A DNA stretch of 64,000 nucleotides from Eledone cirrhosa (taxonomy: Eukaryota). Location of the stretch: NCBI GenBank assembly GCA_964016885.1, contig OZ024743.1, positions 290,904,001 to 290,968,000 on the forward strand. Reading direction: 5' to 3'. Made by a program: the position numbers and the translations under genes. The notes beneath the pieces were generated by a model. That model searched no databases and was not told the origin of the DNA. It worked only from the letters and a program-made list of their open reading frames with translations. Position 1 is the first letter of the stretch. Each line of letters opens with the position of its first letter. Positions 1 through 64,000 of this stretch are shown in pieces.

Positions 1-398
1 ACCCCCCACTGATTTTATAGACATCTGCTAGCTTAAGAGAAACTTATTGACAAGGAATGGTATGCCTTCCGGAACCTGTTTATAGAATTCTGTCTGCCTT
101 TGTTACTCTAAAAACATAAATAAATATAAATTAACTATAGCTATGTAGAATTAGCTTTTAATGAATTCCCTTCTCTATCAACCAATGACCTGCACCCATC
201 CCACTCCCCACCCTCTCCTACCACTTGTAGAGACCTATAAATACCATATTTATTTTTTGATACCCAGATTCCTGATGATTTCTAATGAATGAAACAGTTC
301 TAGTCCTGTAGAATCTCATCTATATTAAAACTGTTATACTCTGCTATGTATTGAGTACCTTACTTACTGTGGTTACCTCCGATTCAACCCGGAATAAC
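1..398 (+). mobile_element. 3' end / pseudo-LTR of a Penelope-like element, ending at (TA)n
   Basis: 265-397 is nearly identical to 32671-32803 and contains a hammerhead motif. The 3' end abuts (TA)n at ~400-432. Confidence 0.7.
266..316 (+). ncRNA. Type I hammerhead ribozyme, predicted GUA cleavage after 310
   Basis: Stem I AGATTC/GAATCT, core CTGATGA, stem II TTC-taat-GAA, GAAA, stem III CAG/CTG, then TA. Confidence 0.85.
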
Positions 399-4500: not shown

Positions 4501-4850
4501 ATCAATCTAGCTGTCGTCTGTTCTACAGTGTGGATGTCATTCACTTCGCACAGAAGTTTTGTTCAAATTTATTGAGGAAATTTTGTGAGTTCAAACTTAA
4601 TTTTGATACAATTGTGTAGCTTGACCCTCCGTCTGAACTGTCAGGCGGTGGGTCAGCTCATCTTTACCCCTCCTAGAGGTGAAAAACCTGTTTTAAAAAA
4701 AATTTTGTGTAAAAAATTTCAATCGTCTAACAGAAATGTTAAACGCAGCGAACGAAAATAGTGGTGGGGGGGACAGCGGTAAGAGTTGTAAGCTCGCACG
4801 CTTTAGTCCTCCCTTCCTTCCCAACTAACGTCATAGAGAAGGAAGGAAAA

Positions 4851-6617: not shown

Positions 6618-6650
6618 GTCTCTACACTCTCCTTTGGCTCTGCCGCCCAC

Positions 6651-9600
6651 ATGGATGTGTTAAGAGTAGGATGTTTGAATGCACGTGGCCTGGGCTCAAC
6701 TTGGAAGCAAGCAAAGCTTCTAAATGACCTCAGGTCATGTAGTATAAATGTAATGGTTATCTGTGAGACTCGAATCAGCGTCATGCGGCAGCTGGCCCCC
6801 ACCTTCGATGACTTTGAGGTGCATGCATCTCTCTGTCAACCTGGAGGTGGGGGTGGGGTTGTCGTGCTGCTGCAAAAACACCTGGGTCTTGACGTACAGG
6901 TTGTGCACTCGGACCCGGAGGGTCGTTTGTTGGTGCTAGACGTTGGCAGTAGTGAAAGTGCGGCCTTGAGACTGGTCGACGTCTACTCCCCTTTCGGAGC
7001 TGAACGGCCCGACTTCTTCCAGCGTTTGGAGACTTTTCTGGGAACGTCGCGTTCCCTGCTTCTAGCGGGGGATTGGAATGACATCCTGGATGCACGTTGG
7101 GACTATGCAGGAGCATGTCCTAATAGAGGGGGGTGTAACAGCCTCAAGGGGTTACTCGACCGTTTTAACTTGGTCGATAGATATCGACTAGATTTTCCAA
7201 CTGTGCCTACCTGGACTTGGAGAAACCACAGTGGTCAATCTAGATCGTACTTAGATAGATTCTTAGTTAGAAGTAAGGATAGGGACATATTAAGCTGTCC
7301 AGAAATGCGCACGGTTGGCTACACGGATCACAAATTAGTGACCTGCGTGGTCAATCTCGAGAAAACACATAGACAGGGTCCCGGTTACTGGAAACTTAAT
7401 TTGTCTTTACCGGCAAAAGAGACTTACAGAAACCGGATTAGCAGATTAGTTAAGGAGAGGTTGACGGGTGCAATCGTCAACAACCGATGGTGGGCATCTC
7501 TCAAAAGAGAGATTAGAACAGAATCAATAAGTTATAGCAAGATGTTAGCTGCCAATAGGAATAGAAACGAGAAAGAATTAACAGGTAAATTAGAAGAGGC
7601 AATCAAGAGCGAAGATGTGGCCAGAGTGCTGGCATCGAGGACGGCCTTGAACCAGTTTTTCGATGCAAAGCATGAAGGCTGCGTCATTCGAAGTAAAATA
7701 CGTGCTCTAGGTAATGAGGGGGCCAAAGCCGTTGGATGGGCTCGCGTGACAGAAGCTAAAAGTGGAAATCGATCCACCATCCGGTCGTTGCAAGACGAAG
7801 ATGGACGAGTGATCCGGGAGCCTAAGCAGATGTGCGAGGCCTTTCAAAAGCACTTTGCCCGATTGTTCGGGGGAGGCGAGGGTCCGGGCCGGGGCGTGGA
7901 TTTCGGTCCATACCTCGACGGCCTGCCGCGTCTCTCGAACAAAGAGGCAGAGTCCTGCGAGGGACCAATCTCGGCTGATGAGATCGGAGATGCGCTGAGC
8001 CAATGCAGCAGACGCAAATCTCCAGGTCTTGATGGTATACCTTACGAACTTTATTTAGCAATGCCGGTCTTCTTCTCCGAACTCCTCGAAGCGGTCTACT
8101 GCAATTGGCAGCAGAACGAGAGAATTCCTTGTTCTGTAGCCAAGGGCGTAGTCACGCTGGTGAGGAAGGACGAGAACAAGGGGGATAGTATAAATAATTT
8201 TCGGCCCATAACCCTGCTAAACACAGAGTTAAAGATTTTGGCCAAGGTGTTAGCAAAGAGGTTGGCGCTTGTCGTGGGTGGCCTGGTGGGAGATGCGCAG
8301 ACATGTGCTATCCCATCCAGGTCCATTCACGATAACCTCCACCTCATGCGATACATCATAGAGAGGGTTGGCAACAAACCCGGCTTCGGTGGGGCCCTGA
8401 TCAACTTGGATCAGTCTAAGGCCTTCGATAGGGTCGACCATGGTTACCTGGATGCGGTGCTAGCGGCGGCTGGGTTCGGTCCTGTTTTCAGAGGCTGGAT
8501 CACTGCCCTACATAGCAACCACATCTGTTCTAGGATCAAGGTGAACGGCTACCTTTCGAAGCCGTTCGAAATCACACGATCCATTCGACAGGGGTGCCCT
8601 CTCTCCTCCCTTCTGTACGTATTGACTCTCGAGCCTTTACTGAGGAAGTTGGAGTTGTTGCAGGGTATCCCCCTGGAACCAGGATTGAGCAAAGCGGTGT
8701 CGGCCTACGCCGATGACGTAACAGTAATGGTATCAACCGACTCGGAGATCGAGGCGATCGGTACCTTACTGGAGGAGTACGAAAGGTTGTCAGGAGCGAA
8801 ACTGAACCGGGAAAAATCCATCGGGCTGCAACTCGGAACGTGGAGAGGCAAACCGATGCCTCCTGACGGTGTCGTCGGACACTGGACGGAGGGCCCGGTA
8901 AAGTTGCTTGGGGTCTGGTTTGGACCGGACCTCCAGGTGGAAAAGAACTGGAACGAGGTTACGAACAAGGTGTTTGCACTAACCCAGAAATGGGCCAAGT
9001 GTAAGCTGTCCCTAAAAGGCCGGGCGGAGGTGGCGAACATTTACATAGCGTCCGTCACTTACTACCGCCTGACTGTCGTGCCTTGCCCTAAGGAAACACT
9101 CACCACCATGGAACGCATGCTCTTCCAATTTCTTTGGAAGAAGCGTCCTCCTATGGTGAGAAGATCCATCTGCTGCCAACAACCTTCGAAAGGAGGTCTG
9201 GGGATGCCGTGGTTGATGATGCGTAGGCACGCATTAAGGCTACGGCACCTACAGGTATTCCTCACTGGTCAACCGGTGTGGGCCCCGTTCGTGAAACGAG
9301 CCTTTCCGAGACTCGTCTCACTCACCGAGCTACAGTCCTGGGTCAAACAAAGATCCGGAAAACTGGGAGACTGGCACACTGAGTGTGCTCAGGCGCTCAG
9401 GGCTCTCTGGCAAGCGGGCCGGGCCATCGGTGGAGAATCCACCTCATCATTCTATAGAGGGCTGGTGGCTAGCAGGGGCGATGACACCCTTGGAGAGTCG
9501 CTGGACATGGAAGAAGACGAACTGGCCAGCCTGTTCGGTAGGACTTTCGGCCCAGGACCAATGGACAACTTCCAGAAGTCACTGGCCTGGCAGTGCTACC

Positions 9601-10088
9601 GAGGGGCTCTACCCGTTCGAGAGAGGCTCTACAGACACGGGCGCCCGGGCAGGGATCCCTCAAAAAAGATTTGCCCTAGATGCGTGCGTCACGAAGAAAC
9701 CGTGGCGCACGCATTGGTGCAATGTCCGGGCGTGGCTGATCTGTGGGGCTACGCCGAACAACTGCTGTCGCGGGTGGCGCCGATTAAATTGACCGCCGAG
9801 TCCGTGATGACAATCAAACCGCCTCCCCTCTTCACAAAGGAAGCAAAGGCGGTTTTTCTGTGCGTAATAGCCATGTTGAAAGAGGTTGTTTGGTGGACAC
9901 GATTGAAAGGTCTGAGGTCAGGCAACTTCCTCTCTAGCCATAGTCTGGTCTACTTCTTCCGATATCACTTCGGAAGAAGGATAAGAATGGAGAGAGAGGT
10001 GCTTGGCCACAGGCAGTTTTATGAAAGGTGGGTGATAGTGGCGAGAATGGCTCGTGTAAATGGGCCTTCTCTGTATACCATCCTGTAG
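6651..10088 (+). CDS. LINE ORF2p: APE endonuclease + reverse transcriptase + C-terminal zinc finger (1145 aa)
   Basis: APE motifs LNARGL, ICET, GDWN, YLDRF, TDH. RT motifs KSPGLDG, FRPITLLN, DQSKAFDRV, RQGCPLS, YADD. C-terminal CPRC..ETVAHALVQC. Confidence 0.97.
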   Translation: MDVLRVGCLNARGLGSTWKQAKLLNDLRSCSINVMVICETRISVMRQLAPTFDDFEVHASLCQPGGGGGVVVLLQKHLGLDVQVVHSDPEGRLLVLDVGSSESAALRLVDVYSPFGAERPDFFQRLETFLGTSRSLLLAGDWNDILDARWDYAGACPNRGGCNSLKGLLDRFNLVDRYRLDFPTVPTWTWRNHSGQSRSYLDRFLVRSKDRDILSCPEMRTVGYTDHKLVTCVVNLEKTHRQGPGYWKLNLSLPAKETYRNRISRLVKERLTGAIVNNRWWASLKREIRTESISYSKMLAANRNRNEKELTGKLEEAIKSEDVARVLASRTALNQFFDAKHEGCVIRSKIRALGNEGAKAVGWARVTEAKSGNRSTIRSLQDEDGRVIREPKQMCEAFQKHFARLFGGGEGPGRGVDFGPYLDGLPRLSNKEAESCEGPISADEIGDALSQCSRRKSPGLDGIPYELYLAMPVFFSELLEAVYCNWQQNERIPCSVAKGVVTLVRKDENKGDSINNFRPITLLNTELKILAKVLAKRLALVVGGLVGDAQTCAIPSRSIHDNLHLMRYIIERVGNKPGFGGALINLDQSKAFDRVDHGYLDAVLAAAGFGPVFRGWITALHSNHICSRIKVNGYLSKPFEITRSIRQGCPLSSLLYVLTLEPLLRKLELLQGIPLEPGLSKAVSAYADDVTVMVSTDSEIEAIGTLLEEYERLSGAKLNREKSIGLQLGTWRGKPMPPDGVVGHWTEGPVKLLGVWFGPDLQVEKNWNEVTNKVFALTQKWAKCKLSLKGRAEVANIYIASVTYYRLTVVPCPKETLTTMERMLFQFLWKKRPPMVRRSICCQQPSKGGLGMPWLMMRRHALRLRHLQVFLTGQPVWAPFVKRAFPRLVSLTELQSWVKQRSGKLGDWHTECAQALRALWQAGRAIGGESTSSFYRGLVASRGDDTLGESLDMEEDELASLFGRTFGPGPMDNFQKSLAWQCYRGALPVRERLYRHGRPGRDPSKKICPRCVRHEETVAHALVQCPGVADLWGYAEQLLSRVAPIKLTAESVMTIKPPPLFTKEAKAVFLCVIAMLKEVVWWTRLKGLRSGNFLSSHSLVYFFRYHFGRRIRMEREVLGHRQFYERWVIVARMARVNGPSLYTIL

Positions 10089-32530: not shown

Positions 32531-32803
<273 letters not shown>

Positions 32804-32991
32804 GTGTGCGTGTATATAGGCTATCTGTACATAAATCGCAAAAGGATATCAATCTAGTACATGAGAACTTATTTACTTTATATACATTTTTATGCATTGC
32901 TGGCATTAACAGGACACCGAAACCTAAGGTCACGCATGAATGAATTTTGATATGAACAGACTGTCTCTCTCGCCCTCCCCTTCCTCTCTCA

Positions 32992-33067
<76 letters not shown>

Positions 33068-33073
<6 letters not shown>

Positions 33074-33347
33074 TGCCATTACATGTAAAGGATGCAATGA
33101 AGATTATATAGGACAAACTAAACTCACACTCAGAAACAGAATGACAGTTCATCGCCAACAATTACGAGATCCAACCACGAGACAGATACCACTAAGTGCA
33201 TATCTAGACATATGCGCAAGTAGTAAGACACCCAAAATCCAAGTCTTCCCAATTTATCTTTGCGCTGACAATACAACAAAACAAATACGAATAAATAACG
33301 AAAATATGTTTATTCAAAAATATACACCATCATTAAATATAGTTTAA
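33068..33347 (+). pseudogene. PLE GIY-YIG endonuclease fragment (5'-truncated element, 3' UTR to ~34280)
   Basis: INAITCKGCNEDYIGQT..LRNRMTVHRQQ..E..FIQKYTPSLN. Begins at (TA)n. Confidence 0.8.
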
Positions 33348-34896: not shown

Positions 34897-36932
34897 TCAA
34901 ACGAATATAAATTAAGATAACGTTACATAATATAATGTTCCATATATTGGTTTTTACTATGGTGCCTTGGTTGCATCAGCTGTCAGCCATAATGAAGCAG
35001 TACTCGTCTGTCGAGGCTGCATTGTGTGAGATCTGCCTATGGGTAACAAGATGGCAGCCAAAGGGCATATTTACCTTACTAATTAGAGGGTGGTTCCAGG
35101 GAACCAACTTCTCGAGAGATTAGAGATTGTGTGTATTTTATAGTTATGTGCTAGTATTTAAATTATTTAATTGAGGGACAATGTAGGCGAGGTAACTTAT
35201 AATTATCGAGTTGTTCATAGCAATTTAACTTATTAGCTACAATTAGAGATGGGGCTACATGACTAAGTTGGGTCAAAAGCTCTATTGGCGAAGGAATTAG
35301 CCCTTCGATATTGACAGCTAATGGTTACCTCCGTTCTATCGTTAATTGGTAGAGGTCGTGATAGAGTTATGTAATATGCTTCCGTAACACAGAGATCACA
35401 AGATTTCCTTCGGCCATTGAACGTTTGGGCCCTAGCTACGATATCCCATTTTAGTGAGTGTTGAACTTTGTTTAATTTAAGGTTTTTAATGAGCCTAGCT
35501 AGCGATGTCGAACATCTGTTGCTAGGGTCTCGGAAGGAAAAAGAGTGCGCCATATAGCGTACGTTAAAAGGATTAGAGGTAGACCCGATATAAGAGCTGG
35601 TATTCGAAGCAGTCTCAACTGTGCACCTATAGACTATGTTGGGTGTCAGGCAGTGTCCATTTAATGGGCATGCATTGGGGTACCGGCAGTTGCAGTTGCT
35701 TCTGCGGTTAGTGAGGGTAGGGTTGTTTAACCTAAGCAGTTGGTCCGTGCTAGAAGGATTAGATGGGGGAGGTGTGCTACTAGAGTAATTATTGGTGTAG
35801 TGGCGTGGTGTATTTGATAGGGGTGGTGGTACCGCGGTGTGGGAGTTATACTGCCTTAGCTTATGTCTTGGCCGGTGATGGACCACAACTTGTAGGTGGT
35901 ATCATCCCGTAGCCCAGGGATTATCCTATCAAGGATGTTCTTACTGATGCGGCCCAGGTCAGATGTGGTTGGGCTTATGAGTCTAATGGATGGGTTCTCT
36001 ATAAAGTTTGGCTTGTGGTCCTTGAGAGAGAATCTTGGGGTTGTTGTTACATAAGAGTGGGTAAATATATCCAAATGCAAGTCCTTAACCAAAGCCTGGG
36101 CTTTTCGGTTAAGTATGTTTACACTGGAGGGTGTAGTTTTTTTAATAGTTTTTGTTGAGTTCTTTAAGAAGGAAAGAGTTGTAAATTTCAGAAGTCATGG
36201 TGTATAGATTTTTGGTTTTGTCAGACATAACATGTAAGAGGTTGCTATCCTTAAATTTTTTATAGTTGTTGCTAATGTAGTGACAAAGTTATTCCTGTGT
36301 CTATAATGATTTTTGAACTTAATGCTCATGATGAAATTGAATAGATCTTTCTCAAAAGGATCCAGCAGGATGTTGTGTGGGGGGTTCTTGCATGTGGCAA
36401 ATCCATATCTATTTGCTGTACTTCCGGCGTCAGCAGCAACCGCACGGTCAAAGGGGTACGCTTTCCATCTTATTCTTCAGATGAAAGAGTTGACACTCTG
36501 TGTTAATAGTTTGAGGTATGTCTTTCTGTCCGGAATAGGTATGGACTTAAGTGAGATTCTGAGTTCCTGTTTGCTCAATATGGTTACTTCTAACAGTAAA
36601 TAGCTCAACTACGGGAGCTCAGGTATACACAGTTCAAGAGTAACCAATCTTAAAGAGAGAGATGGAGATAGTAGAGGAGATATGAGAGAAAAAATTGGTG
36701 AGTTAGTTAGAAGCCAAAGCGTAAAGGCATGTGCCCTATGTGCAATATGCAGTAGAAAGCAGCTAGGTGGCTGGGTTGATGCAGAGGTTAGGTGCGCAGA
36801 ACTGGAAATATTCATTAGTTAAGCAAAACAAGACCACAAATTTCAAAAGGAAGACATTATTAAAAGATTGTCAACATATTTTAGTTTGATGTAAGGAATG
36901 TTGAGAATAATAATAATAATAATAATAATATT

Positions 36933-38525: not shown

Positions 38526-38711
38526 TGAACACCAACACACCAACACCGTCGCCTAGAGATAGACCTCTGTCGAAAACATCTCACTGCTAAGACAATTGAT
38601 AGATGCTTCGACGGTGATTGTATTGAATAACAAAAATAAAAAGCAATACCCCATACGCAAACATATATATATATATATATATACATACATATATGTGTAT
38701 GTGTATGTGTG

Positions 38712-38851
<140 letters not shown>

Positions 38852-39831
38852 AAATATATATATGTGTATATATATATGTATGTATGTACACGTATGTGTG
38901 GGTGTATGCATGTATGTGTGTGTATATATATATATATATATGGGTGTATATATATGTGGGTTGTTATATGTGTGTATATGTGTGTTTAAGTATGTAATAT
39001 ATATGGACTGTAAATATATTTACATATAGGGAAGTGAATATTGTAGCTACCCCCCACCCCGCGCCCACACACACACACTTTCTCTCCCAAACCAATATTA
39101 ACAACATACTTTTTTGACAAACTATCCTTCTTTATTTCTATTTTTACTGTGATCCCATTCTTATCAAAAGACATGTATCTTACACCTTATTAAAACCCAC
39201 CACCACCACCACCCTACACGCACCTAAATTAATCTTTGATATAGAAATTTGTTGAAGATATTCTTAATAAATTTAAGAGAGTTAATTCAGCTATAAGAAA
39301 CGAATTTGAAAAAACAACCTGCTATTATATATTCATTAAAGGTAATCTATTGAAATAATACCAGTAGGCGATGTTTACGACAACGTTCTCAAACAGCCTT
39401 ATCTTCATGTCAACCTCACCATTTTCTGAGTGTATATATGTATGTGTGTATGTGGAGGGAGGTTCGTGCGTGTATGTGTGTGTATGCTTTAATTCCTTCA
39501 AATCTTCACCAACACTCATTAACACCACACCCCACACCCAGACACGTCCAAATCTCTATTATATATAGTCACACATTACAACACAGCCTGATCACAGTTT
39601 GACAATCGCAACGACGAATGTGAGAAAATTCTCCAACAAAGTTAACTAGGCATCTTTAAAATTATTTCCACCGAAGTTAACAAAAAAACTTACTAGATCT
39701 ACCAACTCAATATTATAATATAAAATTAAATCAAATTTTTAACACTACATATGCAGTTATTCTTTTCCTGTTTTATACCTAACTGTACCAAGGATCTCAG
39801 TCATTTTCCAATATATATATATATATATGGT

Positions 39832-45120: not shown

Positions 45121-48100
45121 AACAAAGCCAATCTGTGAACGCTGAGGTGAATATTTCAAAAAACGTTACAACCGGAGGAAGACAGGAAGACGATACTTTG
45201 GTTGGTGGAAACGTTACCTGGCGAAGAACGGGAAAAAACGAATATAATACGTCATTATTTGGAGCGGTGAAAAACAATTACACGCAAAGACATATCACGT
45301 TTATGGTATAAAAGAAGTCGTGGACTAATATTCCATTAGGTGGTTCATAGAGACGTTCTCTGGCAATGAAAGGAAGAAACGAAGATAATACGTCATATGT
45401 GGGGCGTGGATAACAATTGCACGCAAAGAAAACACCACGTAAATGGTATAACTGAAGTCGTAGACAACATTCTATCTAGGAAACCGAATGATTCTCGGCT
45501 TAAGAGTTAAGAATAAAGTAAATAATATACAGATGTTATGGAAATTAAATAAATACATACACGCATCCACATGTGTACATACACAAGCATACGCGAAAAC
45601 ACTTGCCATAGGTATACAAATACACGCACGCACACAAAAACAAAACCGCACGCACATACGGAACCCACGCAACGCCTGTACTCGCACGCATACGAATGTA
45701 TACATCAAATACACATAAAAATATATATTAAAAAAAATAATACATATATATATATATATATGTGTGCGTGTATACATATAATTAAATAAACGTATATAAA
45801 TAAATAAATACCTATATAACAAGCGCACACACATACCTACATGTGAATACACATATGTTCGGAGACGAACGTCAACCAAACCAGAAAGTACACATATACA
45901 CACACCCTACATACGTACGAACCCGCATACTCACACAGACGCAAAACTCACGTATACACATATCCCAAAGCATCTGTACCAGAATATATAATATATATGC
46001 CATAACATATACAATCAAATATACATACGAGAAAGTATAGGTACCTTCACAAAGCATACAGGTAATATATACTTACCTATACAAATAAGTAATGGTATAA
46101 ACATAACATACAGTTAGATACCACATCAAGACGTAAAATATCCGCGTATAGATTGTACTATCCGTTAAGGTATATTGTGGTGCTGTAATACAGGAAAGTA
46201 TTGTGTAATTTATGTTTACAAGCCGAAATTGCCTCAGATCTTTTGTTTAAGATGTGGTCTGTGCCGTAGAGTATTTCCAGGGCCTCAGAGGCGCAGAGGT
46301 CACATGGTCTTTTATTTCCGTTATACGATCTAGCCCTAGCTAGGATCTCCCAGTGTAACTTATATTGGGTGTGGTTGTCTTTTAGACTCCAGATATGAGC
46401 TGAAAGTGACGTCATATTCCTTCTAAAAGGGTAACGAAAATAATGGGTATTCATGTAAAGACGCTGCTTGAATCTATTGGCGGTTAACCCTATGTAGGCC
46501 CTACGGGACGTGGGTGTGACAACCTTACATTTGTAGACAATGTTACTAGAGATGCATTTCCCGGATTGGGGGCAGTCAACCCGATTCCTACAATTACAGT
46601 TAGTACTAACTACAGAGATGCACGTGTTCCTACAGCTAGGTAGTTTAGCTAAATTTGAAGCTGTGATGTTATGTGCAAGGTTCGGAGTCGTAGAGTAAGG
46701 CATTTTAATAGTATTTATATTACAAATGTTACTATATTTATGTGTAGGGGTAAAATGCTTCATAATAAGGGAGAGAAAGATCTCAGCTAATGGTGTGGCC
46801 ACCTCCATATTATATGGTTGGTTATACCATATAATGCGTCGGGATCTATTTCTTCTAGGTCTATTCTCGAACTCTGTATATGCTACCTTGTCGACAAATC
46901 CACTCCGAGCAAGAGCTTCATTGTAATATGTGGCATGGTCGTTGAAAATATGCTCGTTAGTAGATAGACGGGAAAGCCTCGGAGAAACGTTTCTTACCAG
47001 GTTCTTGGTTATGCTGGCAGGATTGTTAGAATTCGCCTTTCTATACGGGTAATGCAAGCCATCGATACATTGAGGGTAACGTCGAGGTAATTAACGACCG
47101 AGAGGTTGGTCTCAACCTGTATGGAGAGGTTGAAGCCTTTAAAGAAGGTTGTGAGTTCTTTTCTGAACCTGTCGCAAGAACGTGGGCCGCACTTAGTCAT
47201 GGTCAAAATACCATATTCACGGTACAAACCACCGCCCACATTGGGGAATTCTTCCTTGATAGAAAAAAGAAGGAAAAGGCCGATAAGATCAGTAACCTCC
47301 GCAGAATCTCTGGCGCCCATACTCACGTCGAATGGGGTACTATTAGATTTTTTAATCCAAATAGAGTCGTCGAAATTAATCACCGACTTACGGGCATTGA
47401 GGATGACATCAACTTCGAAATCCTTAACTTTAGCGAAATTGATAACTCTAAGGAGAAGTGGTAAAGTGATGGAAGAGTAGTAATTATTTATGTCGAATTG
47501 GATAAAACGGCAATGCTCCTTGTTGCATATGCCGCCAAAGAATTGTTCCACAGTGCAAGAGGGGCCAAACTTCTAATTTCAGGTATAATTCTATCAAGAA
47601 TCCTTTTACTAAGTCTACCTAAATCGGACTTCGTAGGGTTAATAAGCCGAATAGAGGGGTTGTTTGGAAAATTGGATTTGTGATCCTTCAGGGAAAAGTG
47701 GGGAGAATTAGGGCCCACAGGTTCACTACGGTCCAGGATGTTGAGATCAGAGGTGATTTTAAACCCAGCATCGTTGATTTCATTAATGACGCTCCGGTTA
47801 GTTTTACGGTAATCCTTAGTTACAGCATTATGTAGCAGTTGATGGTAGGAACTCCGCTCCACTTGATATTGATTGCCAGTTTTGTCGGATTGGACATGCA
47901 CGGCATTAGAATCCTTAATAGAATAAATTCTATTCTTCATTACCGGCTGGATGGAATTGCTCCTATTCCGAAATGTGATACTTTGTATGAGTTCCAAGAC
48001 ATCATTTTCGAAGGGTAGCAATGCTGGGTTACTCGGAGGGTTATTATAGGTTTTAAACCCAAATGTATCCTGTTTGTTGTCTGGCTTTCTGTGATTATCG

Positions 48101-48382
48101 AAATAAAAGGCACGCCAACGCAACCTTTTAATGAACGCGTCTGTTTTCTGTATCAGGAGTTTTAGTTATATTTTCCTGCTTGGTACGGGTATGTTCTTTT
48201 TTGAAATATTCAGATGTTGTTTCTGCATGATGAATATAAGTCAATATAGTTCTCAACCGAGGGAGCCAAATAGAAATAACAATAAATTTGAAGACTAAAA
48301 TACAAAGAGGGCTCGATAAGGATAAATATATATCAAATATATAAGAACCGTAGAGCAAATATTTATTAAAATAACCGATTAA

Positions 48383-52577: not shown

Positions 52578-52618
<41 letters not shown>

Positions 52619-52668
52619 CATATTAAACAAATAATGAACAAACAATTCCTTATATTAAACAAAAAAAG

Positions 52669-52823
52669 TTCACTATTTAACGATCGTTTCTAGGGCATAT
52701 ATGTGTTATAATTGGTATGCATATTTAACAGATCTATGTACAAAATTATACAAAATTATACAAATTATCAAGATTAAATATACATACCTAACTCATATAT
52801 ACGCCGTCTTCAGAAATAATGAA
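52669..52823 (-). ncRNA. Type I hammerhead ribozyme with long stem II (3' pLTR)
   Basis: Reverse complement of 58791-58945. Confidence 0.85.
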
Positions 52824-53582
52824 GTATATTTATTGATAATAACAACAATTCAAAATATCAGTTCAAAATTGACCAATGAAAACACAAAGGGTTAAAAGCA
52901 GTTTGGTGTGTGTATACACATGCAAAAACCTTACACATATTTTACAATAATGTGTGTATAATTTGTATGTGTATACTAAAAAGATGGATGCAAACACAAA
53001 ATTTCAAGGTTAATATCTCTGTAAGCTTAATGCGCTGATAAGATACGCAAAGATACTTATGGAGTCAAGCATATAAATATATTTTTTTCATACTCACACA
53101 TATCAGTATAATCACACATACATGTGCGTATATGCATAAATATACACATAACCACGAACATACAAACACACACACTCCCCCACTCACATTTATATATGTG
53201 GATATAAAATCATAAGCAAATAGAAATTAAGTCACTCACATAAAAACACTGGTACACACATTTCAAGATCAAGATACAGAAATTAGGTGGGAGGGGGGGG
53301 GGAGGGGTCAGTATTAGATTGTCAGACCAGACAGCCTAATATAAATGTATCTATAAATTAAGAAAAATAAAAAAATAAAAACAATAAAATATAATAAATG
53401 TACATACACATACAGATATACATACACGTACATACATGTACGCGCACATAGAGATATCTACACATACATACATACACACATACCTATACTGTCATACACA
53501 CACATATATTTACACGAACATACACATACACATATAAAAAGATATAAATACACACACACTCACGCGCAACACATACACACAT

Positions 53583-53621
<39 letters not shown>

Positions 53622-53642
53622 TATACACACACACATAGACTC

Positions 53643-53676
<34 letters not shown>

Positions 53677-53734
53677 ATACAAACATATATATCCCCACAC
53701 TCATACCACCATAAATATACATACAAACACCCAC

Positions 53735-53772
<38 letters not shown>

Positions 53773-53983
53773 ACATATACACACGTACACATATATATAT
53801 ATATATACACATATATACACATACACATATACATATACACACACATAAAAAACAGACATGCACATATATATATATATATATATATACATATTTCATTACT
53901 CTTATATATACACATAGTATATATACATACACAACCTCACTTATACACATATACACATAAGTTATATTACAATAATAATAAAG

Positions 53984-54058
<75 letters not shown>

Positions 54059-54155
54059 CACATACATACACATACATACATACACCTAAACATATACATA
54101 CATAAATACACACATACGAATAAAGACATATATTCACACATAGACACCTATATAC

Positions 54156-54186
<31 letters not shown>

Positions 54187-54201
54187 TATCTATATATATA
54201 C

Positions 54202-54244
<43 letters not shown>

Positions 54245-55983
54245 CACACACACACACACACACAGACACACATACACACTCACATATACATATATATATA
54301 TGTGTATGTGAGCGTGCGCAAATACATATATATATATACACACACACATACAAACACACACAAACACATACATATGCATACATGCACACACACACACATA
54401 TATCACATAGATACGAAGATAAACATATAAATAGAGAGACATACAAATATATACAGAACCCATATACACATACATACAACCACGCATATACATATACATA
54501 CATATATACACATATATATATTCCTATATACAAGCATACACATACATACACATATATACATATACATACACATATACATACCACACATTCACATACACAT
54601 ACATATATAATACATATATATACATATATATACATACATATGTATGTACAATCATATATACACACTCAATCTTACATTCATATTTACATGCTCATATATG
54701 TATTTTTATATTTAGAAATAAATACCAAAACCTATATAGACACCCACCTACACATATATTCATACATATACTCTTATAAAAACAGATGATAATAGTATGG
54801 GGGAAAGGGGGGGTTTGGGGAAGGGGATCAAAGTAAATATATGTTTCAAGAAACATATAATATTTTCCGTATCTTAATTCAATGTATGTTCTTACATATT
54901 TTCAGTGCTAGGAAATACGAAATCTATGCATCCCAAAATAAAAAAGTATACCATTAATCATATGTTAACTAAACCAAAGATAGTCAACATATTGATTTCC
55001 AAGGTGTAAATTAGTTAGGTTTATAATATTTGAAGCAGAATTATGAAGTCAAACAGTAGTAGATTATTAATTACATTATAACTAAATTAAAGTTAATAAC
55101 GTTATGGTATCAATATTAGGAGATGAATTTAGTAATAGGGAAAAGAAACCCAAATAAAAATAAAATAAAGTATTACATCGGTAGTAGCATATAAATTATA
55201 TGTTAACTAAATTAAAAATTATATATTTATTTCAATAGTATACGTTAATTAGTATATGTTAATTAGGTATACAATACATAAAGCAGATATTGTATTTCAT
55301 CAATAGCATAATATAATTATATGCAAATAAAAATCAAAATTAATACGCATACATATACATATACATACACATACACATATATATACATATACACACACAT
55401 ATATATATATATACATATATATACACATACATACATATATAGTCACATAAATATACATACAGATACCCATACAATACACACATATACATATACATATAGA
55501 TATACATATCTTTTTCAAAAAATTGCACAGAATATATTAACTAGGTATATATCCAAAACACATCCCATTCTATGATTACATGACATTCTGCAATTCGTCT
55601 GTACAAGGATACTAATTTTAAGCAAATTAAAATTAAAGTTTTAGGTTGATTAAAACTAAAACCAAATAATAAATATATTTCCAAAATGTATATTAATTAG
55701 GTCTATAATACTAAAAAATTCTTTCTCCGTCATAGGATACATGATATTATTTTGTTATATTTTATCTGTAAAAGAATTATAATAAAAAAAAAATTATAAT
55801 AAAAGGTTAAAATAAATTAAAATTAATCCATAAATTAAATTACTGAGTATATATTAGTAATATTTAAAGGTTTTTCAAAATTTATGATTACATAATATTT
55901 TCTCATCTGTAATAAAATATTAATTAAATTAAATTTATAGGTTAACTAACATTTAAATTAAATTAAATTCTAGAATAATGTAA

Positions 55984-58425
55984 TTAATTAGGTTTATAAT
56001 ATTTAAATGTTTTTTTTAGTTTATGATTACACGATATAATTAATTCCTGTCTTTTATTTAATAAGATATCCCTAGACTTCATTATTTCAAATAGTTCTTG
56101 GGAACATAATCTACATTCCTTTCTATTATTTTGATAAGGGGTGGCTCTTTTGAGCACACTCCAGGTCAAATCATATTTTATATTTTTATTTTTATAACTA
56201 TTGATTTTTTCTGCTAGAGATGTTGTATTAGCCAGTGCGGCATTTTTAAAGCTATGTTTGTGGGTATTATACCTTGTCTTAAAATTGTTAGAGGTAGCTC
56301 CTATATATGAGCAAATAGAATCTTTAGTTTTAACATTACATTTATAGACTATGTTGTTAACAAGACAATTCCCTTTTAATGGGCAGTTTGTTTTGTTTCT
56401 ACAGTTACATCCTTTCGTTAATTCTGTATTTGAGGAGATATTATTGTTAATTTGATGTACTGGTGGTATACTTATGGTTTTCTTACATTTATATGCATTA
56501 TATGCACTTATATTTTGTTTTATGTTATTTGTTGTAGAGTATGAGAATTTAACTGTATACCTATTTAAGATTTGATGGTATTTGTGGTTTGGCGGGAAGT
56601 TTTTCTCAAGGATATAAAAAAATTTTTTAGCAATATTATCCTTAACTTGTAAATTAAAAGGAGCATTATACCAAGTAACTCGTCTATTACGGTTTCTATG
56701 TTGTTTATTATTTTTATTATTTTTATATGTTGTATCATGATTTTTACTAGGAGGATTAATGTTAATGATCTCACCACAACTATTTTTAGTTATATTTGTA
56801 GATTTAGGTGTTTTATCTTTTTTATTAGGAGTTTTATTATTAATATTTATTATAGTCGTATGATGAGTAGTTTTTTGAGGGTTACTATACTTTATATTAG
56901 AAGATTTAGTATTTTGGGGTATACTGTGGGTGGCATTTAGGTGTGTACTTTTCATTTGGTGTTTGTTGGTAATATTATGCTGTATGCTTTCAGTATTTTT
57001 AGTAGAAGGTATATACTCTAATCTATTTTTGTGGCCACTTCTATCTAGAGCTTCATTATAAAAGGTCGCATTTTTATCAAATACATCTTGGTTAGAAGAA
57101 AGGTTAGAAATTCTAAGTGATATATTATATGCAAGGTTTTTAAGGATAGATTTAGGGTGATTAGATTGTGAGTGTATGTAATGTAAGTTTTGGTTAGGTT
57201 TATGGTAAGGTTGGTATATACCCGTAGCTAAATCTAAAGTTATATCTAGGAAATTTACTACTTTACTTGTTTTTTCAAAAGTAATATTAAGATTATAATA
57301 GTCTTTAAGGAAAGTTCTAATATGCTTTTTGTTTTTTTCGATTTCTGAAAGGCTAAGGTTGTTAGAAAGAAGAAGACAGTCATCACGATATAAACCACCT
57401 TTGAGGTGGGGAAAAGAGGCATTTATGTTGAAAAGGAGAAAGAGGCCCACAAGATCAGTAATTTGGGCGGAATCGCTTGAACCCATAGTAATATCAAAAA
57501 GATTACTGTAAGTGTTTCTGGTCCAGTATTCATTCTGAAATTCAATAAGTGTTTGTCTAGCATGTGTAATAATGTTAATGTCATCCGAAGTTAAATTAGA
57601 TCTATTTTTAGCAAATATTAATGCTTTGTTCAGGAGTATGGGTGATATAGAAGAATAGTAATTATCTATATCAAATTGTAGGAAAGAAGCAGAAGATTTA
57701 CACCTAATATTTTTAAACCAATTAATTACCTGGGAGGTGTTTTCCCAGAGTGGTAAAATAACGTATTTTCTTATTTGTGGGATGACTCTATCTAAAATTT
57801 TTTTGCTAATTATTCCAATATCTGATTTGGAGGGACATATAAGTCTAATAGAAGGATTAGAGTTAAAGTTAGATTTGTGATCTTTCAGGTTGAAGTGTGG
57901 ACTTTTCAATGCCAAAGGTTCAGTTCTATCTTCAATATTTAGTTTTTTTACTATGTTGTGTGTTTTGTTGTTGATGTTGGTGAGTGACACATTATTAGAT
58001 TTTTTATAATTTTTTCTGAGTTCTTTATATATGAACTCATTATAATGTTCAATATCCATATGATACAAGTTACCAGTTTTGTCCGAGTGGACATGGATTT
58101 TTTTAGACTTTTTTAGGTCCAATAGGGTAGAATCAAGGTCCTTTTGAAAGACGGATTTATACTTTTTAAATTTGAGGTGTTTAATTAAATTAAAAAGGTC
58201 TTTCTCGAAGTCTTCAAGTAAAAAGTTGTGTGGTGGATTCTTGTAAGTGTTGAAATCATACATATATTTCCGATCTGCTTGTTTAGATTTTCTATCGAAG
58301 TGGTAGGCTCTCCATCTAACCCTTCTGATAAAATTATTAGTTTTCTGAATCATAAGGAGTAAGAAGTCGTCCTTAGAAGGTATTGGTATGTTTTTTAAGG
58401 AGGTTCCTAAATATTGTTTTTCCAT
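55984..58425 (-). CDS. PLE reverse transcriptase + GIY-YIG endonuclease (813 aa from the first ATG; tentatively Nematis-like)
   Basis: QFDIDNYYSSI, MGSSDSAQ, GLYRDD, NFLD, YHKP, CNCRNKTNCPLKGNC, IVYKC..YIGAT..FKTRYNTH, CRLC..E..LN..CNH. The ORF-track start at 58446 is a TTG. Confidence 0.95.
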   Translation of the reverse strand: MEKQYLGTSLKNIPIPSKDDFLLLMIQKTNNFIRRVRWRAYHFDRKSKQADRKYMYDFNTYKNPPHNFLLEDFEKDLFNLIKHLKFKKYKSVFQKDLDSTLLDLKKSKKIHVHSDKTGNLYHMDIEHYNEFIYKELRKNYKKSNNVSLTNINNKTHNIVKKLNIEDRTEPLALKSPHFNLKDHKSNFNSNPSIRLICPSKSDIGIISKKILDRVIPQIRKYVILPLWENTSQVINWFKNIRCKSSASFLQFDIDNYYSSISPILLNKALIFAKNRSNLTSDDINIITHARQTLIEFQNEYWTRNTYSNLFDITMGSSDSAQITDLVGLFLLFNINASFPHLKGGLYRDDCLLLSNNLSLSEIEKNKKHIRTFLKDYYNLNITFEKTSKVVNFLDITLDLATGIYQPYHKPNQNLHYIHSQSNHPKSILKNLAYNISLRISNLSSNQDVFDKNATFYNEALDRSGHKNRLEYIPSTKNTESIQHNITNKHQMKSTHLNATHSIPQNTKSSNIKYSNPQKTTHHTTIININNKTPNKKDKTPKSTNITKNSCGEIININPPSKNHDTTYKNNKNNKQHRNRNRRVTWYNAPFNLQVKDNIAKKFFYILEKNFPPNHKYHQILNRYTVKFSYSTTNNIKQNISAYNAYKCKKTISIPPVHQINNNISSNTELTKGCNCRNKTNCPLKGNCLVNNIVYKCNVKTKDSICSYIGATSNNFKTRYNTHKHSFKNAALANTTSLAEKINSYKNKNIKYDLTWSVLKRATPYQNNRKECRLCSQELFEIMKSRDILLNKRQELIISCNHKLKKTFKYYKPN

Positions 58426-58790
58426 TGTGATATGGATGATGGACAATTGAAAGAGCTCAACTAAATGTATATGGGTTTACAAAATCATACATATATATAT
58501 ATGTTTATACATAAATATAAAATTAATACACACATACAGTACAAAAATACGAATATTTCCGTGAAAATAGGAGCAAAATTATGTAGATAAATCTACCAAG
58601 AGTTTACGGTAGTGTCCAATCCGTATGAAGAACTCAATGTATTCCGGATATCATGGAAAGAAGAGATGTAATGAAAATCCACTTTCGGTGAAAGATAAAC
58701 GGTATACAGAGTCAAGATAAAATATTAAACAAATAATGAACAAACAATTCCTTATATTAAACAAAAAAAGTTCACTATCAATAAATATAC

Positions 58791-58945
58791 TTCATTATTT
58801 CTGAAGACGGCGTATATATGAGTTAGGTATGTATATTTAATCTTGATAATTTGTATAATTTTGTATAATTTTGTACATAGATCTGTTAAATATGCATACC
58901 AATTATAACACATATATGCCCTAGAAACGATCGTTAAATAGTGAA
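58791..58945 (+). ncRNA. Type I hammerhead ribozyme, predicted GUU cleavage after 58935
   Basis: 10-bp stem I TTCATTATTT/AAATAGTGAA, core CTGAAGA, ~115-nt stem II (GGCGTATAT/ATATATGCC and GGTATGTATATTTAA/TTAAATATGCATACC), GAAA-CGATCG-TT. Confidence 0.88.
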
Positions 58946-59290
58946 CTTTTTTTGTTTAATATAAGGAATTGTTTGTTCATTATTTGTTTAATATTTTATC
59001 TTGACTCTGTATACCGTTTATCTTTCACCGAAAGTGGATTTTCATTACATCTCTTCTTTCCATGATATCCGGAATACATTGAGTTCTTCATACGGATTGG
59101 ACACTACCGTAAACTCTTGGTAGATTTATCTACATAATTTTGCTCCTATTTTCACGGAAATATTCGTATTTTTGTACTGTATGTGTGTATTAATTTTATA
59201 TTTATGTATAAACATATATATATATGTATGATTTTGTAAACCCATATACATTTAGTTGAGCTCTTTCAATTGTCCATCATCCATATCACA

Positions 59291-61732
59291 ATGGAAAAAC
59301 AATATTTAGGAACCTCCTTAAAAAACATACCAATACCTTCTAAGGACGACTTCTTACTCCTTATGATTCAGAAAACTAATAATTTTATCAGAAGGGTTAG
59401 ATGGAGAGCCTACCACTTCGATAGAAAATCTAAACAAGCAGATCGGAAATATATGTATGATTTCAACACTTACAAGAATCCACCACACAACTTTTTACTT
59501 GAAGACTTCGAGAAAGACCTTTTTAATTTAATTAAACACCTCAAATTTAAAAAGTATAAATCCGTCTTTCAAAAGGACCTTGATTCTACCCTATTGGACC
59601 TAAAAAAGTCTAAAAAAATCCATGTCCACTCGGACAAAACTGGTAACTTGTATCATATGGATATTGAACATTATAATGAGTTCATATATAAAGAACTCAG
59701 AAAAAATTATAAAAAATCTAATAATGTGTCACTCACCAACATCAACAACAAAACACACAACATAGTAAAAAAACTAAATATTGAAGATAGAACTGAACCT
59801 TTGGCATTGAAAAGTCCACACTTCAACCTGAAAGATCACAAATCTAACTTTAACTCTAATCCTTCTATTAGACTTATATGTCCCTCCAAATCAGATATTG
59901 GAATAATTAGCAAAAAAATTTTAGATAGAGTCATCCCACAAATAAGAAAATACGTTATTTTACCACTCTGGGAAAACACCTCCCAGGTAATTAATTGGTT
60001 TAAAAATATTAGGTGTAAATCTTCTGCTTCTTTCCTACAATTTGATATAGATAATTACTATTCTTCTATATCACCCATACTCCTGAACAAAGCATTAATA
60101 TTTGCTAAAAATAGATCTAATTTAACTTCGGATGACATTAACATTATTACACATGCTAGACAAACACTTATTGAATTTCAGAATGAATACTGGACCAGAA
60201 ACACTTACAGTAATCTTTTTGATATTACTATGGGTTCAAGCGATTCCGCCCAAATTACTGATCTTGTGGGCCTCTTTCTCCTTTTCAACATAAATGCCTC
60301 TTTTCCCCACCTCAAAGGTGGTTTATATCGTGATGACTGTCTTCTTCTTTCTAACAACCTTAGCCTTTCAGAAATCGAAAAAAACAAAAAGCATATTAGA
60401 ACTTTCCTTAAAGACTATTATAATCTTAATATTACTTTTGAAAAAACAAGTAAAGTAGTAAATTTCCTAGATATAACTTTAGATTTAGCTACGGGTATAT
60501 ACCAACCTTACCATAAACCTAACCAAAACTTACATTACATACACTCACAATCTAATCACCCTAAATCTATCCTTAAAAACCTTGCATATAATATATCACT
60601 TAGAATTTCTAACCTTTCTTCTAACCAAGATGTATTTGATAAAAATGCGACCTTTTATAATGAAGCTCTAGATAGAAGTGGCCACAAAAATAGATTAGAG
60701 TATATACCTTCTACTAAAAATACTGAAAGCATACAGCATAATATTACCAACAAACACCAAATGAAAAGTACACACCTAAATGCCACCCACAGTATACCCC
60801 AAAATACTAAATCTTCTAATATAAAGTATAGTAACCCTCAAAAAACTACTCATCATACGACTATAATAAATATTAATAATAAAACTCCTAATAAAAAAGA
60901 TAAAACACCTAAATCTACAAATATAACTAAAAATAGTTGTGGTGAGATCATTAACATTAATCCTCCTAGTAAAAATCATGATACAACATATAAAAATAAT
61001 AAAAATAATAAACAACATAGAAACCGTAATAGACGAGTTACTTGGTATAATGCTCCTTTTAATTTACAAGTTAAGGATAATATTGCTAAAAAATTTTTTT
61101 ATATCCTTGAGAAAAACTTCCCGCCAAACCACAAATACCATCAAATCTTAAATAGGTATACAGTTAAATTCTCATACTCTACAACAAATAACATAAAACA
61201 AAATATAAGTGCATATAATGCATATAAATGTAAGAAAACCATAAGTATACCACCAGTACATCAAATTAACAATAATATCTCCTCAAATACAGAATTAACG
61301 AAAGGATGTAACTGTAGAAACAAAACAAACTGCCCATTAAAAGGGAATTGTCTTGTTAACAACATAGTCTATAAATGTAATGTTAAAACTAAAGATTCTA
61401 TTTGCTCATATATAGGAGCTACCTCTAACAATTTTAAGACAAGGTATAATACCCACAAACATAGCTTTAAAAATGCCGCACTGGCTAATACAACATCTCT
61501 AGCAGAAAAAATCAATAGTTATAAAAATAAAAATATAAAATATGATTTGACCTGGAGTGTGCTCAAAAGAGCCACCCCTTATCAAAATAATAGAAAGGAA
61601 TGTAGATTATGTTCCCAAGAACTATTTGAAATAATGAAGTCTAGGGATATCTTATTAAATAAAAGACAGGAATTAATTATATCGTGTAATCATAAACTAA
61701 AAAAAACATTTAAATATTATAAACCTAATTAA
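59291..61732 (+). CDS. PLE reverse transcriptase + GIY-YIG endonuclease (protein identical to the 55984-58425 copy)
   Basis: The ORF-track translations of the two copies are identical. Confidence 0.95.
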   Translation: MEKQYLGTSLKNIPIPSKDDFLLLMIQKTNNFIRRVRWRAYHFDRKSKQADRKYMYDFNTYKNPPHNFLLEDFEKDLFNLIKHLKFKKYKSVFQKDLDSTLLDLKKSKKIHVHSDKTGNLYHMDIEHYNEFIYKELRKNYKKSNNVSLTNINNKTHNIVKKLNIEDRTEPLALKSPHFNLKDHKSNFNSNPSIRLICPSKSDIGIISKKILDRVIPQIRKYVILPLWENTSQVINWFKNIRCKSSASFLQFDIDNYYSSISPILLNKALIFAKNRSNLTSDDINIITHARQTLIEFQNEYWTRNTYSNLFDITMGSSDSAQITDLVGLFLLFNINASFPHLKGGLYRDDCLLLSNNLSLSEIEKNKKHIRTFLKDYYNLNITFEKTSKVVNFLDITLDLATGIYQPYHKPNQNLHYIHSQSNHPKSILKNLAYNISLRISNLSSNQDVFDKNATFYNEALDRSGHKNRLEYIPSTKNTESIQHNITNKHQMKSTHLNATHSIPQNTKSSNIKYSNPQKTTHHTTIININNKTPNKKDKTPKSTNITKNSCGEIININPPSKNHDTTYKNNKNNKQHRNRNRRVTWYNAPFNLQVKDNIAKKFFYILEKNFPPNHKYHQILNRYTVKFSYSTTNNIKQNISAYNAYKCKKTISIPPVHQINNNISSNTELTKGCNCRNKTNCPLKGNCLVNNIVYKCNVKTKDSICSYIGATSNNFKTRYNTHKHSFKNAALANTTSLAEKINSYKNKNIKYDLTWSVLKRATPYQNNRKECRLCSQELFEIMKSRDILLNKRQELIISCNHKLKKTFKYYKPN

Positions 61733-63451
61733 TTACATTATTCTAGAATTTAATTTAATTTAAATGTTAGTTAACCTATAAATTTAATTTAATTAATATT
61801 TTATTACAGATGAGAAAATATTATGTAATCATAAATTTTGAAAAACCTTTAAATATTACTAATATATACTCAGTAATTTAATTTATGGATTAATTTTAAT
61901 TTATTTTAACCTTTTATTATAATTTTTTTTTTATTATAATTCTTTTACAGATAAAATATAACAAAATAATATCATGTATCCTATGACGGAGAAAGAATTT
62001 TTTAGTATTATAGACCTAATTAATATACATTTTGGAAATATATTTATTATTTGGTTTTAGTTTTAATCAACCTAAAACTTTAATTTTAATTTGCTTAAAA
62101 TTAGTATCCTTGTACAGACGAATTGCAGAATGTCATGTAATCATAGAATGGGATGTGTTTTGGATATATACCTAGTTAATATATTCTGTGCAATTTTTTG
62201 AAAAAGATATGTATATCTATATGTATATGTATATGTGTATATTGTATGTGTATCTGTATGTATATTTATGTGACTATATATGTATGTATGTGTATATATA
62301 TGTATATATATATATATGTGTGTGTATATGTATATATATGTGTATGTGTATGTATATGTATATGTATGCGTATTAATTTTGATTTTTATTTGCATATAAT
62401 TATATTATGCTATTGATGAAATACAATATCTGCTTTATGTATTGTATACCTAATTAACATATACTAATTAACGTATACTATTGAAATAAATATATAATTT
62501 TTAATTTAGTTAACATATAATTTATATGCTACTACCGATGTAATACTTTATTTTATTTTTATTTGGGTTTCTTTTCCCTATTACTAAATTCATCTCCTAA
62601 TATTGATACCATAACGTTATTAACTTTAATTTAGTTATAATGTAATTAATAATCTACTACTGTTTGACTTCATAATTCTGCTTCAAATATTATAAACCTA
62701 ACTAATTTACACCTTGGAAATCAATATGTTGACTATCTTTGGTTTAGTTAACATATGATTAATGGTATACTTTTTTATTTTGGGATGCATAGATTTCGTA
62801 TTTCCTAGCACTGAAAATATGTAAGAACATACATTGAATTAAGATACGGAAAATATTATATGTTTCTTGAAACATATATTTACTTTGATCCCCTTCCCCA
62901 AACCCCCCCTTTCCCCCATACTATTATCATCTGTTTTTATAAGAGTATATGTATGAATATATGTGTAGGTGGGTGTCTATATAGGTTTTGGTATTTATTT
63001 CTAAATATAAAAATACATATATGAGCATGTAAATATGAATGTAAGATTGAGTGTGTATATATGATTGTACATACATATGTATGTATATATATGTATATAT
63101 ATGTATTATATATGTATGTGTATGTGAATGTGTGGTATGTATATGTGTATGTATATGTATATATGTGTATGTATGTGTATGCTTGTATATAGGAATATAT
63201 ATATGTGTATATATGTATGTATATGTATATGCGTGGTTGTATGTATGTGTATATGGGTTCTGTATATATTTGTATGTCTCTCTATTTATATGTTTATCTT
63301 CGTATCTATGTGATATATGTGTGTGTGTGTGCATGTATGCATATGTATGTGTTTGTGTGTGTTTGTATGTGTGTGTGTATATATATATATGTATTTGCGC
63401 ACGCTCACATACACATATATATATATGTATATGTGAGTGTGTATGTGTGTC

Positions 63452-63516
<65 letters not shown>

Positions 63517-63531
63517 GTATATATATAGATA

Positions 63532-63562
<31 letters not shown>

Positions 63563-63659
63563 GTATATAGGTGTCTATGTGTGAATATATGTCTTTATTC
63601 GTATGTGTGTATTTATGTATGTATATGTTTAGGTGTATGTATGTATGTGTATGTATGTG

Positions 63660-63734
<75 letters not shown>

Positions 63735-63945
63735 CTTTATTATTATTGTAATATAACTTATGTGTATATGTGTATAAGTGAGGTTGTGTATGTATATATA
63801 CTATGTGTATATATAAGAGTAATGAAATATGTATATATATATATATATATATATGTGCATGTCTGTTTTTTATGTGTGTGTATATGTATATGTGTATGTG
63901 TATATATGTGTATATATATATATATATGTGTACGTGTGTATATGT

Positions 63946-63979
<34 letters not shown>

Positions 63980-64000
63980 GTGGGTGTTTGTATGTATATT

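Follow-up and report, generated by a model that had tools for sequence, protein, structure and literature searches.

In LINE-1 twin priming, attributed to Ostertag and Kazazian, two DNA ends reportedly prime reverse transcription on one RNA, and the resulting cDNAs, joined by microhomology, give an inversion. The second L1 primer uses variable internal sites, and the two arms scarcely overlap. The family described here, by contrast, uses two fixed sites separated by 137 nt, and its arms may share kilobases of overlap, for which strand displacement is needed.

Among Penelope-like elements (PLEs), the Hydra clade is defined by protein motifs and by (TA)n targets in the available text of Craig et al. 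2021 (PMC8557442). The features given there are an RT-EN ORF with RWx, DKT and a CxCx5C linker, CxxC and CxH around E and N residues, a hammerhead motif, (TA)n targets, and tandem and inverted insertions with a one-ended tail; our family resembles the clade in each of these. It differs in its unit, which is 6.1 kb in the window (6.4-6.9 kb between tandem matches elsewhere) compared with <3 kb for the usual Hydra element in that text, because of a long microsatellite 3' UTR. Its tail of 137 nt also exceeds the 30-40 nt given for Hydra elements.

Other Penelope systems supply further precedents. The portion of Cervera and de la Pena 2014 available to us (PMC4209133) describes a type I hammerhead with a palindromic helix III in the pLTR, as here, and proposes circles as templates for more-than-unit PLE cDNA, without breakpoint data. 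The Penelope element of Drosophila virilis is described in the accessible part of Schostak et al. 2008 (PMC2377424) as having an internal TATA-less promoter in the pLTR. Partial tandems flanked by inverted repeats, and palindromic junctions, appear in excerpts on the D. virilis and Adineta Penelope elements (PMC2377424, PMC3846280), and both are features of our family. For the Adineta junctions the latter text proposes self-priming, a reading that does not fit the family here. The inverted partner and one-ended tail are likewise published, at least in the available sections of PMC8557442 and PMC3846280.

The nearest in vitro system is Anolis Poseidon PAc (Frangieh et al. 2024, PMC11167929), which shares with our family two internal RT start sites bounding the tail and an AT-rich target; the likeness extends to cleavage and extension of both strands, to uncut RNA as the chief template, and to a predicted dimer. 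The PAc sites are inside the ORF and show no strand preference, whereas ours are upstream of the ATG (+356) and are used strictly one per end. The lack of a strand difference in the anole system would not predict such strict pairing, and to that extent counts against the reading favoured here.

Thus, the head-to-head architecture, the one-ended tail and the idea of a circle are already in print, and the locus is an ordinary example of a known architecture; its value lies in the family statistics. The regeneration of pLTRs and the origin of tandem and inverted insertions are called open in PMC11167929 and in the available portions of PMC2377424 and PMC8557442.

The inverted insertion in the window

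The window, by which we mean the whole 64,000-nucleotide stretch of Eledone cirrhosa DNA analysed, contains a Penelope-type retrotransposon with a putative ribozyme, inserted as a head-to-head double copy. From left to right, a (TA)n tract is followed by the left arm, a whole unit running from +64 to +3, then by the junction and the right arm, which takes in a whole unit between -157 and +201, and by (TA)n again. Numbering is relative to +1 at window position 58936, the first base after the GTT of a hammerhead-like motif, and the next unit begins 6,103 nt on. Family counts refer to an assembly of ~3.0 Gb in 1,796 contigs. The features are as follows.

52582..52614: (TA)n tract forming the target on the outer left side; family 3' ends also enter (TA)n.
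52615..58778, minus strand: left arm, one whole unit, from an outer (3') end at the family start site +64 to an inner (5') end that lies at +3..+6 in the preceding unit.
52669..52823, minus strand: intact hammerhead-like motif close to the left arm's 3' end, matching 58791-58945 exactly as its reverse complement; predicted cut 52679/52678.
55984..58425, minus strand: left-arm ORF, 813 aa, RT plus a C-terminal GIY-YIG-type endonuclease; same protein as that of the right arm.
58776..58778: TAT microhomology at the head-to-head joint, equal to +3..+5 of the left arm and -160..-158 of the right arm.
58779..64000, plus strand: right arm, starting at -157 (-160 with TAT), one whole unit, with its outer end at +201 outside the window, followed by (TA)n.
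58791..58945, plus strand: type I hammerhead-like motif; predicted cut 58935/58936.
58792..58797, plus strand: initiator-like TCATTA; the A at 58794 is -142, the main inner breakpoint of the family.
58821..58825, plus strand: DPE-like AGTTA (DPE consensus RGWYV), at +28..+32 from the putative start; lost in the older subfamily.
58936..58985, plus strand: rival hairpin pairing +1..+11 with +40..+50, predicted to out-compete stem I.
58999..59136, plus strand: the two family 3' ends, +64 (58999) and +201 (59136), which bound the 137-nt tail and are putative RT start sites.
59291..61732, plus strand: right-arm ORF, 813 aa, with RWR, DKTG, YRDD, CxCx5C, YIG, CxxC and CxH.
61733..64000, plus strand: long microsatellite-rich 3' UTR, which makes the unit 6.1 kb.

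The first-pass annotation placed the junction correctly, and its description holds in part. The minus-strand arm does begin 2-5 nt past the predicted GUU cut, at +3, or at +6 if TAT is assigned to the other arm; TAT fits both arms at the joint; and 58779-58994 is, exactly and over 216 nt, the reverse complement of 52835-52620. The terminal redundancy, given there as 57 bp, actually extends over 62 nt, from +3 to +64, and contains a single mismatch, at +60 (window 52619). The +201 end of the right arm falls at extended coordinate 65239, and loose ends at 59136 and 58580 are present in raw reads.

Across 6.1 kb the arms are 99.8% alike, differing by 5 substitutions and 4 small indels, and -157..+59 is present in three copies without a single difference. 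The SNPs at +3304 and +3314 that set the arms apart are both private (G/T in 15 other matches) and so cannot discriminate one template from two. The right arm, which starts at window 58776-58779, belongs to a minor cluster of inner ends at -152..-160 that also includes L016, L048, L099 and L114; the cluster is possibly a weaker upstream start.

The single ORF joins an RT to a C-terminal GIY-YIG endonuclease (YRDD, DKTG, YIG), as expected of EN+ Penelope-like elements, with RWR at residue 37 (R for K), DKTG at 115, CNCRNKTNC at 673, CRLC at 771 and CNH at 799. The layout is also that of EN+ elements, with partial tandem pLTRs, an inverted 5'-truncated partner and a tail at one end. Features of the Hydra clade include the CxCx5C linker, DKT, an RWK-like motif, CxxC and CxH in the EN, and the (TA)n target, and no GxKF/Y motif was found in the 813-aa protein, an absence that is itself a Hydra-clade feature. 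Pfam recognized neither an RT nor a GIY-YIG domain in the protein, and of 116 homologues 115 are unnamed; the Penelope assignment therefore rests on motifs. By these motifs and its (TA)n target, the element is classed as a Hydra-clade PLE.

Outer ends and allele sharing

The family has 1,111 exact leader matches in the genome. Our leader-match census covers the 100 matches listed, all on contig C1, and was partly tallied by eye; the other censuses likewise take at most the first 100 matches listed for a pattern. Among 172 distinct outer ends scored, 72 are at +64 and 55 at +201; 13 lie elsewhere in +50..+203, and 32 run on. All 41 inverted insertions on contig C1 with both ends read pair +64 with +201. 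At a further 40 loci, the same pairing is found in each of the 33 that have an inverted partner, and the other 7 show no inverted partner. In total, 74 of 74 inverted insertions with both ends read carry one +64 and one +201 end. Single-arm copies end at either site. We found no published report of strict two-site pairing or of breakpoint counts in literature that includes PMC6765202 and the accessible text of bioRxiv 10.64898/2026.07.22.740005; most subscription papers were outside the scope of the search.

On contig C1 (41 insertions, by eye), the +64 arm reaches further 5' in ~23, the +201 arm in ~9, and ~9 are symmetric (P = 0.02), as if the +64 polymerase runs ahead on the same RNA. At a G/A variable site, the two arms share an allele in all 36 insertions listed (12 G/G and 24 A/A, with ~16 mixed pairs expected); this tally by eye gives P = 6e-10 if the arms are independent. 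The pattern used counted intact copies (416) and served solely for allele sharing. Such sharing could also be explained by one active source locus at a time, or by conversion between arms. The family shows the independent outer 3' ends and microhomology-joined 5' ends of twin priming, and allele sharing points to the same RNA.

Two smaller observations concern flanks and junctions. At L072 (G000:C4:328.447 Mb), both outer flanks share their first 19 bases after (TA)n, inverted, and then diverge. Short templated tandem inserts, typical of end-joining repair, are found at the inversion junctions of L067, L069, L076 and L119.

The hammerhead-like motif and inner breakpoints

The motif consists of stem I (58791-58800/58936-58945), CUGAAGA (58801-58807), a long stem II, a palindromic stem III and a GUU triplet. 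It thus has the CUGANGA and GAAA boxes, NUH triplet, and stems I and III of a type I hammerhead, and the hammerhead-like fold is predicted in isolation with z = -5.3 against 200 shuffles. The 45 commonest of the variants listed, drawn with a pattern that required both core boxes, show no change in them. In these variants stem II and GAAA are separated by two additional bases (UA). The purine10.1-pyrimidine11.1 pair that closes stem II next to G12 is absent, and G10.1-C11.1 is not directly before GAAA, a difference from the hammerhead in the available text of PMC4209133. Among the Rfam matches listed (150 of 155), none is a hammerhead, and only microsatellite-driven miRNA hits occur. The motif is an atypical variant (UA before GAAA, GUU) that may work like a hammerhead. 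The rival hairpin has a predicted pairing probability of 0.78-0.99; in RNA reaching +64 it is predicted to displace stem I and to switch the hammerhead off.

Inner breakpoints were counted with patterns in which an exact anchor had to be preceded by a base departing from the reference. In the young subfamily, -145..-136 yields 184. Upstream of it, -199..-190 gives 0 real of 2 rows; downstream, -59..-50 gives 3 real of 5, -16..-8 retains ~22-26 of 54 rows (SNP rows removed by eye), -3..+6 gives 18 (the pattern is ~70% sensitive by design), and +9..+18 gives ~20 clear and up to 13 ambiguous of 77 rows, blurred by poly-T length variants. The intervals counted in the older subfamily give 857 at -142..-137 and 160 at -3..+6. 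The main breakpoint is -142 (184 + 857 pattern hits versus 18 + 160 at the cut), and 14 of 30 and 34 of 64 ends in two examined sets lie exactly there. The expectation of the first-pass annotation that breakpoints would follow the ribozyme was thus borne out in that they are non-random, but their dominant peak is at -142 and not at the cut site.

The simplest reading of this peak is that -142 is a transcription start, which we infer from the breakpoints; an internal promoter in the pLTR is known from D. virilis Penelope, according to the available part of PMC2377424. An extra G of the cap type is found at -142 in 8 of 34 cases, and the G may equally be the partner's templated base. A splice acceptor at -142 was rejected, there being no AG in the sequence, as was a second hammerhead cut, for which there are no matching stems.

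Short arms form a plateau from ~-16 to +18 that includes the cut site and stands at seven or eight times the level of -59..-50. For these arms the interval at the cut shares its elevation with neighbouring positions. Of 73 ends in the older subfamily, 23 map to +1 (9.7 expected); they come from 100 of the 160 rows, with the +6 bin (25 rows) and 2 rows with deletions omitted. Setting aside 8 rows joined through the stem I mirror leaves 15 of 65 (P = 0.02), and others fall on the mirror of the rival hairpin. The evidence for run-off at a cut end is therefore real but modest.

Short palindromic copies, in which +64 to -142 is joined to -142 to +201, are very many genome-wide (L121, L295-L333, L364-L393), with at least 1,041 arm ends found by two patterns. 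If transcribed, they would form ~200-bp hairpins, a likely source of small RNA.

Templates for the long arms

The unit-length set comprises the 100 matches listed of 298 that cross +201 into the ORF side; it mixes subfamilies, and the window is not among the 100. Of these passages, 8 stop at +17..+185, 7 at -10..+16 and 2 at -11..-135, and 83 reach -136. None of the 83 stops in -160..-136, and hence none at -142. Stops at -145..-136 occur in 20 of 86 first passages (contig C1, by eye) versus 0 of 83 later passages (Fisher P = 6e-7). Conversely, unit-length arms account for 0 of 124 arms ending at -145..-136 (30 + 64 + 30) versus 3 of 48 rows from the interval at the cut. Linear RNAs from the putative adjacent promoter are thus not the source of the long arms. 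Because none of the 83 long passages stops at -142, the long copies likely derive from circular or strand-transferred RNA, which gives indirect support to the circles proposed in the available text of PMC4209133.

The cut site is read through by ~97% of passages. Stops at +1..+6 number 3 of 100 (L067, L230, L282) against 0.28 expected, which is ~ten times background (P about 0.003). The coincidence of junction and cut site that the first-pass annotation emphasized therefore stands as to position, and it exceeds chance only modestly. One of the three, L282 (G000:C3:197.976 Mb), is a near twin of the window: its +64 arm ends at +1..+4 and its +201 arm at +12..+16, and both are whole units. A short deletion near +52..+58 is common to both of its arms and absent from the window unit.

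The insertion is probably the product of twin priming at two fixed sites on one longer-than-unit RNA, at a (TA)n target, with the cDNAs joined by TAT. After a cut in (TA)n DNA, each DNA end would prime one reverse transcriptase, most likely at +64 and +201. The footprints from which this mechanism is reconstructed are those in genomic DNA. The outer ends are taken to be priming sites, which agrees with in vitro results from a different clade, and we infer that both arms were copied from a single RNA. The +64 polymerase would usually lead, and the cDNA ends would likely be joined head to head by the TAT microhomology. Short palindromes ending at -142 would come from uncut RNAs that begin at the promoter and are primed close to the 5' end, and long arms would call for a template in which -1 is joined to +1 and which has no 5' end at -142. 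From this young, abundant family come predictions at nucleotide level: starts at +64 and +201, each used by a different DNA end, transcription beginning at -142, and a long-copy template with no end at -142.

The long-arm template could be a ribozyme-cut, ligated circle, a reading that we hold tentatively. Strand transfer through the terminal redundancy of the RNA seems unlikely, and read-through from further upstream a shade more so. Similarly, the left arm's stop at +3..+6 would on balance reflect chance, or a polymerase that stalled at the ribozyme structure; that the polymerase ran off a cut end, so that the arm's 5' end would be that of a ribozyme-cut RNA, is credible but somewhat doubtful. 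On one linear RNA, a cut at +1 would block the right arm from reaching -157, so a cut end and a single RNA are compatible only with a circle or strand transfer. The upstream ribozyme may be regenerated without a tandem DNA source, via RNA and not via a cDNA hairpin.

A more general proposal, which we regard as doubtful, is that obligate two-site twin priming on ribozyme-made circular RNA is the integration mode of PLEs at large. A protein dimer would dock one DNA end at +64 and its counterpart at +201, each polymerase would then roll round the circle, and uncut promoter-started RNAs would give short palindromes. If true, tandems, pLTRs, the one-ended tail and head-to-head inversions would come from one reaction, and the window would represent a polymerase halted at the ribozyme joint after a full lap.

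Twin priming on two RNAs, one ribozyme-cut (left arm to +3) and one uncut or circular (right arm to -157), would directly explain why one arm halts at the cut and the other passes it. The excess of +1..+6 stops among listed unit-length arms and of +1 ends in the older subfamily favours this reading. However, the +1 excess drops once the stem I-homology rows are removed, with more rows on rival-hairpin homology, and the allele sharing, together with symmetric junctions at arbitrary places (-4821/-4821, -221/-221, -249/-248), favours one RNA. We therefore consider two RNAs improbable.

The mechanism preferred by the first-pass annotation is fold-back: a +64-primed cDNA runs off the ribozyme-cut 5' end, self-primes via TAT, and copies itself through the redundancy. 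The coordinates at the window locus permit it, the three identical -157..+59 copies and the symmetric junctions would be expected of it, and self-priming has been proposed for Penelope palindromic junctions in the accessible part of PMC3846280. Template restarts are also known in the family: the arm of L087/L171-L172 (G000:C1:162.183 Mb) reaches -139, resumes at +13 and copies again as far as -136, so that the template is restarted close to the putative RNA 5' end. However, a second arm copied from the first cDNA should end at that cDNA's start, and the right arm continues to +201; an extra jump is needed for +65..+201, plus a stop exactly at the second start site. The sister insertions fit no better, since all 74 pair unlike outer ends, including short ones in which no jump is possible. 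Arms often hold sequence missing from the partner, in both directions (L037, L056, L106); for example, L037 pairs 64 to -606 with 106 to 201, and L106 pairs 64 to -5230 with 82 to 201. A fold-back copy cannot contain sequence absent from its template, so these barely overlapping arms contradict fold-back. Even the junctions that mirror stem I, which are its best candidates (L336, L338, L358, L072, L077), have unlike outer ends. Fold-back is thus very improbable, and the annotation's own alternative, twin priming on a tandem or circular RNA, fits the sister-copy ends.

A DNA-level inverted duplication or long-read fold-back artefact is the least credible explanation: the arms are nearly identical and no record in four other runs, which could not show this joint, spans the whole stretch, but the insertion ends at the element's two different start sites, the same design recurs at 74 loci, joints at 58793-58795 (-143..-141) are present in sequencing runs of two studies, and the unrelated outer flanks together with the differences between the arms exclude an assembly or read fold-back.

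Twin priming on one RNA remains our preferred reading, and several other structures were observed beside it. L112 (G000:C1:273.66 Mb) has a same-strand switch from +473 to -16 inside a tandem, linking an almost complete unit to its successor a short way upstream of the cut site. In the window itself, a repeat finder was swamped by (TA)n except for a 4.8-kb inversion. Broken copies of related Penelope-like families, at 39-46% protein identity to the 813-aa ORF, occur at 46185-48228 (minus), 35290-36578 (minus) and 38664-38942 (plus), the last as a 75% DNA match. Two adjacent long ORFs at 4743-10088 (plus), 624 and 1,156 aa from stop to stop, resemble those of a non-LTR retrotransposon with an endonuclease and RT. 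A 24-nt minimal hammerhead-like core is found at 272-295 (plus) and at ~32650-32700 (both strands), where the copies are head to head near 32675. These cores are close to RT-like or GIY-YIG-like fragments (444-1085, 32940-33347) and probably belong to another Penelope-like family.
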